Below, piece after piece: positions 51,980 to 62,688 of a DNA stretch of 64,000 nucleotides. The notes beneath the pieces were generated by a model that was not told where the DNA came from, made no database searches, and saw only the letters and a list, made by a program, of their open reading frames with translations. Positions within the stretch are counted from its first letter, which is position 1; each line of letters starts with the position of its first letter. A program made the translations under genes and the position numbers. Source of the stretch: a virus; the IMG/VR virus record IMGVR_UViG_3300014325_000010, positions 33,130 through 97,129 of that record, one strand, 5' to 3'.

Positions 51980-52002
51980 GCGGTAAAATAGCGTACCGGG
52001 CG
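51980..52002 (+). promoter_or_regulatory. Conserved promoter-like element copy A (GCGGTAAAATAGCGTACCGGGCG), about 60 nt upstream of the 52061 gene
   Basis: Shares G-TAAAATA-(G/C)CG(T)TA..GGCG core with four other sites (52980-53006, 55048-55075, 61936-61954, 62664-62688), each upstream of a plus-strand gene start. Confidence 0.5.
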
Positions 52003-52060
52003 CCCCGCGTTTGAAACCGCGCGGTTTAGCTCCAATTGATAATCAGAACGGGAGGTAATA

Positions 52061-52345
52061 ATGACAACGACAAGAATAGTCAAGCTACGTGCAGATCGTG
52101 AGTTAACCAAACGTGGTGGGTATGGCGTGGATCGGCTGCTCCCAAGCAGAAATTCCAATGAAGCAGTGTATTGGAAGGACGGAGACAGCTACGTTGCTTC
52201 CAAGGATTCTCACGGTGACTACGTGATCTTCTCGATAACCGGCGTCGGTGAGATCCGTTGGGATGTACGACCCCTGGAGTGGCATCCCAGAAACCTCGAC
52301 GTCATTGACTACTTCTTCGAGCGAGGCACCGAAGAGCGGGCGTAA
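52061..52345 (+). CDS. Hypothetical early protein
   Basis: 94 aa. Strong RBS GGGAGGTAATA-ATG. Confidence 0.55.
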   Translation: MTTTRIVKLRADRELTKRGGYGVDRLLPSRNSNEAVYWKDGDSYVASKDSHGDYVIFSITGVGEIRWDVRPLEWHPRNLDVIDYFFERGTEERA

Positions 52346-52420
52346 GACGTTGCGTGGTGGATAGGTGCAGACTCCTATCTATCACGGAGCAATCTTGCTC
52401 CCTCACCGAAAGGTTCTGGT

Positions 52421-52711
52421 ATGATCAAGGTCTACCATGGCAAAAACTTTGGGCAGATGGCGCTGAAACAGACTCAGTGGCCAGCCGATTACGAGCTGGT
52501 CGCGACAGTGAAAACCGACGATCTCGAGAAAGCGTTCGAGCTCACGAACCACATCAACAGTATCTGGATGCAGAATCCAGATGTGACCGCCGAGCCCGGA
52601 CAGCACCGATCCACCTCAGTCGGCGACGTGATGGTGGACGAAAGCGCCAGAACGTGGCAGTGCGGGGATTTTGGATGGCGGGAGATCGCCTCCGTACAAG
52701 GAGATGCTTAG
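52421..52711 (+). CDS. Hypothetical early protein
   Basis: 96 aa. RBS AAAGG upstream. An alternative overlapping frame (52354-52851) looks like Arg-rich GC artefact. Confidence 0.45.
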   Translation: MIKVYHGKNFGQMALKQTQWPADYELVATVKTDDLEKAFELTNHINSIWMQNPDVTAEPGQHRSTSVGDVMVDESARTWQCGDFGWREIASVQGDA

Positions 52712-52979
52712 CCGTCAAGGATGTGGTGGATGCCAATCCTCTTGTGCCAAGGTCGGCTGCCGACGGAAGAAGCAGTGCAAGCGTTGCGAGAAGCCATACA
52801 GCTTTGATAACCATTCGGGGTTTTGCTGGTGGTGTTGGTTCCGATTTGTAAGGAGAAGTTAGATCCGAGGGATGCTGGATGGCCTGGATCTCGGGCCATC
52901 TGGTGTCCGTTAAACGACGCCCACCCAGGCTACATTTTTATTTTGCCGAGCGTAGTTCGCCGTTAGGAAAACGCCGAAG

Positions 52980-53006
52980 GCGCGGTAAAATAGCGTTACC
53001 GGGCGG
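52980..53006 (+). promoter_or_regulatory. Conserved promoter-like element copy B (GCGCGGTAAAATAGCGTTACCGGGCGG)
   Basis: 43 nt upstream of the 53049 gene. Followed by a partial second copy CGCCCGGTAAAAGGCG. Confidence 0.5.
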
Positions 53007-53048
53007 CGCTTAAGTCGCCCGGTAAAAGGCGTAAAGGGTGGTTAAATC

Positions 53049-53489
53049 ATGGTCGTAAAATTTATGGGTATCCCCGCCCCTCATTTCACGGCTAGGCTCA
53101 GCGTCGAGGAATACCGAGCTTATAAAGAAGACGAGCTCTTCCTCCAGCGCCAGGCAGCGTGGAACGCGAAGGCGGCAATTGAACTCAAGGAAAAACGGGA
53201 GCCTGAGTTCTGGTGGTGGCAAGATGAGAAGGGCGAGTGGGTAGGCAAATGCTCGGGTAAGAAGAACCCGACAACAGGCCTGCCGTGCGAGGCTACGATT
53301 AAGGCTGTTGGACTGGTCCACGTGGAAGGAAAGCGCGTGCGGAGTTCCGACGGCGTGATCAAGGTGAGCGACGAAGCCCACTACTGCATGGAATGTCGAC
53401 CGCGGATCTTTGGACGGGTGAGCGGGCGACCGAGTCGCGGGATTCCAATGTGGGGTTCCGATAACGCCGATTACGAAGGCGAGGTTTAA
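53049..53489 (+). CDS. Hypothetical early protein (Trp/Cys-containing)
   Basis: 146 aa. RBS AAAGGGTGG. Confidence 0.55.
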   Translation: MVVKFMGIPAPHFTARLSVEEYRAYKEDELFLQRQAAWNAKAAIELKEKREPEFWWWQDEKGEWVGKCSGKKNPTTGLPCEATIKAVGLVHVEGKRVRSSDGVIKVSDEAHYCMECRPRIFGRVSGRPSRGIPMWGSDNADYEGEV

Positions 53490-53490
53490 A

Positions 53491-54030
53491 ATGGATGTTC
53501 GAAAATTGAAAGCCTCGGGGCTGTACGTCGAGGCACATCAGAGTAGCGTCGCGAAAGAGCCGACGAACCTGGTGTGTGAGGCGTGCAATAAGACCCTCAT
53601 GCAAATCCCGACCGGCGGGATGCTCTTCACCCAAACCCACGGCCGCTGCACCTGCAGCTGGGGCTGCTGCGAGACGGCCAAGCCGACGAATCGCCCGCAT
53701 CCCCGACACCTCGGCCATCGTGTCGCTGCCCCGAAACTCCAGCCGGGCAAAATCCTGACCCGCAACCATGGGTTCGCGGACGACAAGAAGCACAATGCTG
53801 TGAGGAGTAGCGACTCCGGCATCAACTACATGTTCTTCACGAACTACGAATCGGTGAGTCTGACCGACCGTGAAATTCGCGCTCGCTGGTCCATCGCTGG
53901 TGGTGATCCCTATCGCCATCGTTGTTCTCACGAACACGATTGCTGCGCGTGCCACTTTCATTCCGAGATTCACATCGAGCGTCGTCGGCGATTCGTGGTT
54001 GTTACCCAATTCTGGGGCATTAACATTTAA
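53491..54030 (+). CDS. Hypothetical Cys/His-rich protein
   Basis: 179 aa. CEACNK...CTCSWGCCE...CSHEHDCCACHFHSEIH, likely metal-binding. ATG 2 nt after the previous stop. Confidence 0.5.
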   Translation: MDVRKLKASGLYVEAHQSSVAKEPTNLVCEACNKTLMQIPTGGMLFTQTHGRCTCSWGCCETAKPTNRPHPRHLGHRVAAPKLQPGKILTRNHGFADDKKHNAVRSSDSGINYMFFTNYESVSLTDREIRARWSIAGGDPYRHRCSHEHDCCACHFHSEIHIERRRRFVVVTQFWGINI

Positions 54031-61649: not shown

Positions 61650-61664
61650 CCACGAAGGTGTATA

Positions 61665-61814
61665 TGAAATTTAGCGAATTCCTAGTAACATCCATATTTA
61701 GTATATTAGTCACTCTCGCAATATTGCTCTGGCTAGCTGTACACGATGATCTCTGTTTCCTCGATCACCAAGAACCAAGACAATGGCATTGTCTAGTGAT
61801 TGAGCAACGATGAT
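61665..61814 (+). CDS. Candidate small membrane protein (49 aa)
   Basis: ATG 61665 with RBS GAAGGTG 5 nt upstream. MKFSEFLVTSIFSILVTLAILLWLAVHDDLCFLDHQEPRQWHCLVIEQR. One TM helix. Below the ORF-track length cutoff. Confidence 0.35.
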
Positions 61815-61935
61815 TCAAATGATGTTTAAAACGTCATTTTGAATCATGAAACTACCTAAAAACCACTGAACGGACCGTTATTAGACTCCAAAAAGACCTT
61901 TACTTATTCTTGGATGTATTTTATACTTGAATTTA

Positions 61936-61994
61936 GGTAATACGCGGCGTATCCAACTAGACGACCGAAATTCCTCGGTCGTCTAGTTGGTAAC
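61936..61994 (+). promoter_or_regulatory. Promoter-like element copy E (GGTAATACGCGGCGTATCC) followed by a 15-bp-stem perfect hairpin (61957-61994)
   Basis: ccaactagacgaccg-aaattcct-cggtcgtctagttgg sits between the motif and the RBS (AAAGGA) of the 62011 gene. Operator/attenuator candidate. Confidence 0.45.
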
Positions 61995-62010
61995 TAGAAA
62001 GGACACTCAC

Positions 62011-62550
62011 ATGCCCGGCAAGTACACTCGAGAGGCGAAATTCACTGGTTTCGACGGCGTTACCAAGATCCGGCTCTATGCCAACGAGGGCAAGAACGGA
62101 TACAACCTCGGGACCACGATGAAAGAGCCGAACAAGAGGGCTACCACCGGAATGCAAGTCACGTTTCAAACCGAGGCAGAAGCGAACGCGGAGTTCGATC
62201 GTCGCGTCGCCGACGCGAAGGCAAAGGGCTACGCAACTCGTGGCGGAGGAACTGGCATGATTGGCAGACGATCTCGGTTCAACGAGCTGCCGACAGAGCC
62301 GGAGTGGAAGGGTGCTGCTGCGACTTCAGCTGGAATCGCTGGAATCGCGGGAACCGCGGTTCCACCTGCTGCTGCTGCAACCGACCAAGCACCGGAGCAG
62401 GAGAATTCGACTCCGTCGAATTCTACCGAAACACAGACGGAACCGGCTTCTCCGATTCCGGCTGCTGACTCCGTCGAAGAGGTCGAGCAACTGGTCACAC
62501 AGACCGGCGAAGGCCGTGGCTCCAAGGGAGCGAGGCGGAATAGTAGATAA
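62011..62550 (+). CDS. WGR-domain-like protein with Ala/Pro/Thr-rich acidic C-terminal tail
   Basis: Start at ATG 62011 (MPGKYTREAKF...). KIRLYANEGKNGYNLGTT...TFQTEAEANAEFDRRVADAKAKGYATRG resembles the WGR domain consensus ending ...KGY. The ORF-track start 61987 is in the same frame. Confidence 0.45.
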   Translation: MPGKYTREAKFTGFDGVTKIRLYANEGKNGYNLGTTMKEPNKRATTGMQVTFQTEAEANAEFDRRVADAKAKGYATRGGGTGMIGRRSRFNELPTEPEWKGAAATSAGIAGIAGTAVPPAAAATDQAPEQENSTPSNSTETQTEPASPIPAADSVEEVEQLVTQTGEGRGSKGARRNSR

Positions 62551-62586
62551 CGATCTCTATCGTTATCTACTATTCCGAAACTAGGA

Positions 62587-62621
62587 GGGAGCCACTCGAA
62601 ATGAGTGGCTCCTTTCCTTTT
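62587..62621 (+). terminator. Rho-independent terminator
   Basis: ggagccactc-gaaat-gagtggctcc (10-bp GC-rich stem) followed by TTTCCTTTT, 37 nt after the stop of 62011-62550. Confidence 0.7.
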
Positions 62622-62663
62622 ACCCTGTGACTTTATCTAGACCGTACTTTCCACCTTATCCCC

Positions 62664-62688
62664 GTATAAAATACGCTTACGGCGTAGC
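62664..62688 (+). promoter_or_regulatory. Conserved promoter-like element copy D (GTATAAAATACGCTTACGGCGTAGC)
   Basis: 34 nt upstream of the 62722 start. Same TAAAATA + TACGC..GCGTA dyad as copy C. Confidence 0.5.

Follow-up and report, generated by a model that had tools for sequence, protein, structure and literature searches.

A repeated intergenic cassette in the plus-strand module

The 64,000-nucleotide stretch analyzed here (the window; positions 33,130 to 97,129 of IMG/VR record IMGVR_UViG_3300014325_000010) is part of a 112-kb metagenomic contig of an uncultivated tailed phage (ENA ERZ27252489 k141_2788800) and carries, ahead of several of its small genes, copies of an intergenic element built around a TAAAAT hexamer and short inverted repeats. 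From the start of the window to 48.2 kb the genes form a minus-strand structural module with a terminase, a portal, a 2077-amino-acid (aa) tape-measure protein encoded by the largest open reading frame (ORF), and a 1452-aa gene, also on the minus strand, that runs off the window start. The plus-strand module begins at 48.4 kb and holds small, mostly unannotatable genes together with a VapE/Prim-Pol primase-helicase, and all called genes from the first cassette (A, 51.9 kb) to 73.5 kb lie on the plus strand. We read 73.5 kb of phage sequence (the window and L003), and gene annotations covered ~83 kb. Informative relatives were found through the primase-helicase (L007, 70% identity; L006, 55%; L008, 53%), and two further sequences, L002 and L004, carry no comparative information because they are 100% identical to the window.

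A preliminary description of the window had reported five copies of the element (A to E) upstream of the plus-strand genes that start at 52061, 53049, 55138, 62011, and 62722; all five strings are present there, and each gene has a Shine-Dalgarno sequence and an ATG. Copies A (51984), B (52986), C (55054), and D (62667) form one real repeat family. A and B have in common the 15-mer GCGGTAAAATAGCGT as well as ACCGGGCG, and C and D are identical at 21 of 22 bases of TAAAATACGCTTANGGCGTAGC (2 matches versus 0.01 expected). The bare core GTAAAATA is weakly enriched (5 occurrences versus 2.9 expected), and the longer pattern TAAAATASSS occurs four times versus 1.05 expected, a count of 4 being reached in 1 of 100 shuffles; all four matches are intergenic and on the plus strand. 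With a cassette profile spanning positions -50 to +26, from which each copy was left out in turn, nhmmer recovered A, B, C, and a further copy, G, at E values of 2e-7 to 6e-6 and D at 8e-3; the profile also matched the related phages L008 (1e-7) and L007 (2e-5), and nothing else fell below E = 1 in the 73.5 kb of phage sequence. Enrichment is weak for the core as first described and far beyond chance for the extended cassette, whose conserved length of ~75 bp bears out the earlier claim that conservation extends well beyond the hexamer and exceeds what had been noticed.

Aligned on the hexamer, the cassette begins with a TGAC-nn-TATCTAGAC block 23 to 24 bp from it and continues with GAAAMC at 12 to 13 bp. 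A G+C-rich spacer, whose last bases are GCGG or GTAG, then leads to TAAAAT-A, and the box TAC(C)GSCG(TA)GC stands at the predicted start site. When searched alone with up to 3 mismatches, the upstream block (TGACNNTATCTAGAC) shows no enrichment (18 occurrences versus 16.7 expected); it is informative solely through its fixed distance from the hexamer in A, C, and D. Pairwise likeness among the copies is 55 to 88%, and the similarity is mosaic, with C resembling A, B, and G upstream and D downstream. All copies are intergenic and on the plus strand, and the Shine-Dalgarno sequence and ATG of the first gene follow after a gap, with 49 to 83 nt from hexamer to ATG, a placement that agrees with their earlier characterization as promoter-like elements heading plus-strand transcription units. 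Five cassette copies and three related promoters lie within 25 kb of small genes without Pfam hits, and the genes near the cassettes stand in a shuffled order relative to L006.

Cassette A (51946 to 52024) comprises the upstream block CGACGCTATCTAAAC (51946 to 51960), GAAACC (51966 to 51971), a spacer hairpin (ACCGCG/CGCGGT, 51969 to 51984), the hexamer (51984 to 51989), an TACCGGGCG box (51994 to 52002), and a hairpin at 52005 to 52024, ahead of the ATG at 52061. Cassette B (52946 to 53025) has GAAAAC at 52967 to 52972, a G+C-rich spacer, the hexamer at 52986 to 52991, and a 10-bp hairpin with arms TTACCGGGCG (52996 to 53005) and CGCCCGGTAA (53016 to 53025), followed by the ATG at 53049. In cassette C (55015 to 55076; ATG at 55138), the upstream block TGACCGTAAATAGAC (55015 to 55029), GAAAAC (55035 to 55040), and the hexamer (55054 to 55059) are accompanied by a three-part repeat, GCGTA (55048 to 55052), TACGC (55059 to 55063), and GCGTA (55069 to 55073). 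Cassette D (62628 to 62702; ATG at 62722) carries the block TGACTTTATCTAGAC (62628 to 62642), a degenerate -35 (GTACTT/TACTTT), the hexamer (62667 to 62672), the dyad TACGC..GCGTA (62672 to 62686), and a second hairpin (62684 to 62702). Directly upstream of D, an intrinsic-terminator-like plus-strand hairpin read directly off the sequence (62588 to 62621; GGAGCCACTC-gaaat-GAGTGGCTCC followed by a T-tract) closes the preceding unit, that of E.

Two plus-strand sites had been missed. The sixth site, G, lies at 65575 of the same contig, just outside the window, and has both TAAAAT and GAAAMC. The other, F (49053 to 49074; GGTAAGTAAGCATACCGGGCGG), has a spoiled hexamer (TAAGTA) and no called gene downstream; the 9-mer TACCGGGCG is found solely in F, A, and B, and F is, judged from its letters, a decayed cassette copy that has retained the TACCGGGCG box of A and B.

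Promoter-like signatures and hairpins at predicted start sites

Copy E differs from the others. Its GTAATA is no TAAAATA box, the cassette profile fails to recover it, and what it has in common with the family is just the dyad TACGC..GCGTA, for which the window has exactly three matches in the form TACGC-N(0-8)-GCGTA, at C, E, and D, versus 0.17 expected. The promoter-like site of this gap lies 14 nt upstream, reads TTTACT-N17-TATACT, was called by a generic sigma-70 scan, and is conserved ahead of the orthologous gene in L007 (homologous promoter at L007 5579). The plus-strand region (61899 to 61990; ATG at 62011) thus consists of a -35 TTTACT (61899 to 61904), a 17-bp spacer, a -10 TATACT (61922 to 61927), the dyad ATACGC-G-GCGTAT (61940 to 61952) that had been listed as copy E, and a 15-bp hairpin with arms at 61953 to 61967 and 61976 to 61990. 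By these features E is not a member of the TAAAATA family, and the five-copy element reduces to A, B, C, and D as first described plus a promoter of another sub-type that shares the dyad.

Elements of the same type stand between the genes of L006, L007, and L008. We aligned 26 sites from these relatives and this phage, and in 24 of them the hexamer is TAAAAT (11 sites), TATAAT (6 sites), or TATACT (7 sites), with T1, A2, and T6 kept; the two remaining, weak sites have TAAATA and TACGCT. TAAAAT is the form in A, B, C, D, and G, and TATACT is the form in E. In L006 the pattern TTTAY-N18-TAWAMT has five matches versus 0.03 expected, all of them plus-strand and intergenic and with 17-bp spacing, and more distant relatives have TTTACA-N17-TATAAT. 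Since the hexamer stands exactly 17 bp downstream of TTTACT in the relatives, we read it as a sigma-70-type -10 for the host RNA polymerase, in keeping with its earlier likening to a -10 hexamer. A -35 at 16 to 18 bp is present in E, in the five L006 sites, and in two further plus-strand promoters of this phage: one at 48358 to 48387 (TTAACT-N18-TATAAT), ahead of the first plus-strand gene (48398 to 48955) and, like E, called independently by the generic sigma-70 scan, and one at 58945 to 58973 (TTTTCT-N17-TATACT), which precedes a conserved leader and the primase-helicase gene, belongs to the same class as E, and is kept in L006, L007, and L008. The sites divide into two sub-types. One has a recognizable -35 (TTTACT-N17-TAnAnT in E, the primase promoter, and weakly D; also the 48358 promoter); in the other, to which A, B, C, and G belong, the -35 is missing, GAAAMC stands 12 to 13 bp ahead of the -10, and the spacer is G+C rich. 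In L006, five -35-less sites have the same -10 but, in the position of GAAAMC, a box of another sequence, GGAGTAAGCAGCG, which is strongly conserved.

Neither a phage RNA polymerase nor a complete sigma gene was found in the 83 kb examined (Pfam, PHROG, and annotations). The first gene of the plus-strand module (48398 to 48955) encodes a 185-aa protein whose sole recognizable domain is a sigma-70 region-4 helix-turn-helix (HTH) at residues 7 to 40 (Pfam E = 2.8e-6); a PDB sequence search with this protein gave no match, and it has no solved or annotated relative. A reading of the upstream motif as an extracytoplasmic-function sigma site (GAAAC-N16-CGT) was rejected: by hand count GAAAC lies ~21 nt from the nearest CGTA, and no conserved CGT stands at the expected distance.

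For the hairpins, we placed the transcription start (+1) 7 nt after the hexamer and folded the first 40 nt of each predicted transcript. The mean folding energy (dG) was -12.9 kcal/mol versus -6.1 kcal/mol in coding windows (Mann-Whitney p = 6e-10), with a dG of -12 or lower in 60% of the predicted transcripts versus 6.5% of the controls. Stable structure starting from nt 1 to 3 peaked, at 15 of 25 sites, for a start offset of 7 to 8 nt after the -10 (controls, 13%), and a hairpin with 0 to 2 unpaired nucleotides stands at the predicted 5' end of most transcripts. Against dinucleotide shuffles, B (z = -3.0), E (z = -5.7), and G (z = -3.3) are individually significant, D is marginal (z = -1.8), and A has, in addition, a spacer hairpin with z = -4.2. 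In the orthologous promoters E, L007 5602, and L006 7129, the hairpin is kept while the sequences are unrelated; the dyads are different G+C-rich hairpins at the predicted start, not one conserved palindrome.

Neighboring features and the phage lineage

The promoter at 58945 to 58973 is followed by a ~270-nt noncoding leader (58968 to 59327) that is conserved in L006, L007, and L008 and contains the hairpins GGCTCGCCCCGAGCC and CCCGACGGGG; it may be a regulatory leader or a small RNA, and the primase may start at GTG 59243, after ACGGAGGACTACC, instead of at TTG 59328. A 1.2-kb gene-free stretch (58107 to 59327) holds five copies of a ~76-nt complex repeat (families D10 and D14), each with two hairpins (GATTTGGATC..GATCCAAATC and CCCAnTAACAC..GTGTTAnTGGG). 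Further upstream of the primase-helicase, positions 57006 to 57992 are dense in iteron-like repeats GGTAAACC / CCGGTTTACC in both orientations, with AGGTAAA repeats at 57020 to 57070; the same iterons are found in L006 at 9190 to 9700, and the array is probably a replication origin. We considered a link between the GGTAAA within the cassette box and the GGTAAACC origin iterons and set it aside, the counts being too small to support it.

In the unit headed by E, a perfect palindrome with an 18-bp stem (GGAATAGTAGATAACGAT-ctct-ATCGTTATCTACTATTCC, 62537 to 62576) spans the stop codon of the gene at 62011 to 62550, just ahead of the terminator-like hairpin at 62588 to 62621. A second repeated intergenic element, the palindrome TTCCAAT..ATTGGAA, stands directly after the stop codons of four plus-strand genes, at 63091 to 63111 in the window and, on the same contig, at 64775, 65501, and 69621 outside it (L003 11650, 12376, and 16496), and is possibly a terminator or a binding site. 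The gene for the 185-aa protein is followed by two terminator-like hairpins within the 700 nt at 48956 to 49655 that have no called gene; copy F lies in the same stretch, as does GGTTTAGGGATTCTGATTGG, repeated in tandem near 49330. A G+C-rich island (49500 to 55140; 54% versus 42% in the structural module) contains cassettes A, B, and C and looks like acquired DNA. It holds two minus-strand ORFs (49656 to 50048 and 50142 to 50840) and an 18-nt tandem repeat in ~6 copies (50182 to 50323), and GTAAC/GTTAC words are numerous from 49.5 to 51.4 kb.

On the minus strand, a 1523-aa protein (29017 to 33588) consists mostly of ~63-nt (21-aa) tandem repeats (families D1 to D8), and two genes of the head-morphogenesis block (44447 to 45052 and 42565 to 42801) carry precomputed Pfam assignments to Response_reg (PF00072) and HTH_8 (PF02954) that are unexpected there. 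Rfam returned no family at the gathering threshold in the window, an E-value-mode search of 51.9 to 55.2 kb and 57.0 to 62.8 kb gave a chance microRNA as its sole match, and a tRNA search found no tRNAs.

A near-identity DNA search of GenBank phages with the 50- to 64-kb region gave no match, and an IMG/VR scan with the primase protein and three motif patterns gave nothing or, at most, two chance matches in unrelated coding sequence; by these searches the phage represents a lineage without a close relative in GenBank phages or IMG/VR. Scans of metagenomes and GTDB genomes with the primase alignment as query likewise returned no new close relatives. The best phage matches are below 42% identity, the portal and terminase are those of lineages other than T4, and an attempt to find the host from the terminase and portal matches failed (best matches at most 41% identity, scattered across many phyla); the literature likewise yielded nothing on the sample accessions.

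Proposed promoter function, alternatives, and known systems

We think it likely, on the strength of sequence comparisons, that the elements are promoters for the host RNA polymerase. The polymerase, with a primary (sigma-70-family) sigma, would read the cassettes, and each promoter would head a small operon in the plus-strand nonstructural module. The predicted order of parts is the TGAC-nn-TATCTAGAC block ~23 to 24 bp upstream of the -10, the -35 region, a spacer that is G+C rich in the -35-less copies, G-TAAAAT-A, the start-site box, a stem-loop, the Shine-Dalgarno sequence, and the ATG. Transcription would start ~7 nt after the -10, which in most transcripts would place the 5' end at the base of a stable hairpin. 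Such a hairpin would most plausibly shield the 5' end from 5'-end-dependent RNases, and it could also attenuate upstream read-through, as with the promoter-early stem-loops (PeSLs) of T4-type phages. Being repeated, the cassettes would also offer stretches of homology through which the small ORFan genes flanked by them could be shuffled.

Several observations weigh against this interpretation. For want of an acceptable -35, A, B, C, and G are missed by the standard sigma-70 scan, and they may not be functional with the host holoenzyme alone. The +1 is an assumed position at all sites, and in C, D, and the L006 sites 6_4, 6_7, and 6_9 the stem starts upstream of it, so that read-through RNA or DNA would be the only place for the full hairpin to form. 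The folds of A (z = 0.1) and C (z = -1.0) are no better than their composition predicts, and the short dyad of the preliminary description, which stands as a significant hairpin in B, E, and G, does not extend to these two. Folding favors neither the plus nor the minus strand (mean difference in stability, -1.0 kcal/mol; p = 0.17) and so does not establish which one carries the RNA; G-U asymmetry likewise gave no strand for the functional hairpin. Across three phages, the box TACGGCGTAGC keeps its sequence as well as a constant spacing from the -10, and a role in structure alone would not account for this. Finally, just three informative relatives were available, and the host promoter consensus was taken from phages only.

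The -35-less copies raise the question of whether A, B, C, and G are instead activator-dependent "middle" promoters at which a phage protein replaces the -35 contact, as MotA/AsiA do, with GAAAMC centered near -28 or a TGAC-N8-GAC direct repeat at about -51 to -35 as the site. A phage-specific factor at these copies, as had been proposed, is plausible by analogy, and the 185-aa region-4-like HTH protein, which would be made early from a -35-containing promoter, is a candidate. In each of the four -35-less copies, 12 to 13 bp separate the GAAAMC box from the TAAAAT downstream of it, a spacing that matches the T4 MotA boxes, and the distinct GGAGTAAGCAGCG box at the same place in five L006 sites with the same -10 is what would be expected if box and factor co-evolve. 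The shared box may nevertheless stem from paralogous duplication of the four copies, GAAAMC lies within or abuts spacer hairpins, nothing ties the 185-aa protein to the sites, and no MotA/AsiA homologue or other recognizable activator appears in the Pfam and PHROG results for ~83 kb of annotations. We regard a second temporal class, in which a phage factor would read a phage-specific box (GAAAMC here and GGAGTAAGCAGCG in L006), as rather unlikely; were it real, a MotA-style replacement of the -35 would have evolved independently in an unrelated lineage with a 2077-aa tape measure. Less probable still is an operator role for the dyads beside the -10, with a phage-encoded repressor or regulator blocking access to the promoter or start site. 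The box, TAC(G)GCGTA, forms a palindrome by itself, the dyad TACGC..GCGTA is confined to C, D, and E and overlaps the -10 and start site in C and D, and D, L008, and L007 share TACGGCGTA(G/C)C, with its sequence conserved, at an equal distance from the -10. However, the arms stand 5 nt apart in C and D but are separated by 1 nt in E; A and B have the other box (TACCGGGCG), G differs too, and the L006 sites have yet other palindromes. A single dimeric protein is unlikely to recognize all of them, the window contains no identified repressor or integrase, and the single operator suggested earlier is not supported.

The remaining two alternatives are very improbable. Read on the minus strand, the elements present a hairpin followed by TATTTTA and could be intrinsic terminators of antisense transcription; a generic scan lists C and D as minus-strand terminator-like (TACGCCTTAAGCGTA+TTTTACTACG and TACGCCGTAAGCGTA+TTTTATACGG), and B and the L006 sites 6_7 and 6_9 have the same arrangement. 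Yet all called genes from 51.9 to 73.5 kb are on the plus strand, so that a minus-strand unit in need of a terminator is lacking, C and D have stems of just 5 bp, and in the relatives the "T-tract" reads TATAAT or TATACT, with the promoter positions kept, no U-run, and a -35 at exactly 17 bp. Slightly less credible again are promoters for a single-subunit or virion RNA polymerase of the phage (T7-like, or hairpin promoters as in N4), a type also raised in the preliminary description. Conservation does cross the start site, TAAAAT often stands between short inverted repeats in a loosely N4-hairpin-like fashion (GCGTA-gtaaaa-TACGC in C), and ~29 kb of the 112-kb contig lies beyond the part examined; but the 83 kb covered contain no RNA polymerase gene, the copies are 55 to 88% alike and not near-identical, and the box fits the bacterial -10 consensus and is paired with a canonical -35 at 17 bp in the relatives.

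Taken as host promoters, the sites provide a working transcription map of the nonstructural module, with promoters at 48358, 51984, 52986, 55054, 58968, 61922, and 62667 and, outside the window, at 65575. That some of the promoters have a -35 and others have none but carry a box at a fixed distance upstream hints at a temporal switch. The element is otherwise an ordinary one, phage promoters for the host polymerase with start-site hairpins, in a new lineage. To our knowledge, composite promoter/stem-loop cassettes have so far been described in T4-type myoviruses only, and the present case suggests that they may be a more general phage means to insulate, stabilize, and shuffle small accessory genes.

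At T4 middle promoters, a MotA box at a distance of 12 +/- 1 bp from a sigma-70 -10 takes the place of the -35 (PMC2988021). A, B, C, and G resemble these promoters in having a good -10, no -35, and a phage-specific box 12 to 13 bp upstream, but the box is GAAAMC, not TGCTTtA, and no MotA/AsiA homologues were found in the annotations. The ompA and papA leaders, as far as the cited accounts go, have 5'-terminal stem-loops that stabilize the mRNA (Emory, Bouvet and Belasco 1992; Bouvet and Belasco 1992; PMC3997798). Most transcripts predicted here would likewise have a stable hairpin at the 5' end, with 0 to 2 unpaired nucleotides, although in this phage the start sites are assumed and several stems reach upstream of the assumed start. 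Morons, in the account of Hendrix and colleagues given in PMC2839356, are phage genes that carry their own promoter and terminator, and A, B, and C similarly head small ORFan units in a 54% G+C island of a 42% G+C genome; that account does not define morons by a common conserved regulatory cassette, whereas here the regulatory sequences themselves repeat.

The closest parallel is with the PeSLs described by Arbiol et al. 2010 (PMC2839356) and Comeau et al. 2014 (PMC4122927). These combine a strong sigma-70-like promoter with a G+C-rich stem-loop in ORFan-rich regions; the stem-loop may occupy the spacer from the -35 to the -10, overlap the -10, or immediately precede the start site (PMC2839356). 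They act as promoters, attenuators, and recombination linkers in hyperplastic regions (PMC2839356; PMC4122927). The cassettes of this phage are likewise repeated and intergenic (~60 to 100 bp), join a sigma-70-like promoter to a G+C-rich stem-loop at one or another of these positions, and are concentrated among small ORFans, with mosaic copies and a gene order that is shuffled between relatives. The mosaic similarity would be indirect evidence of recombination among copies. They differ in that the genome is not that of a T4-type myovirus (2077-aa tape measure and VapE/Prim-Pol primase), half of the copies lack a -35, an extra conserved box is present at the predicted start site, and the sequences are unrelated. 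By this analogy the cassettes would work like PeSLs while not being PeSLs themselves.

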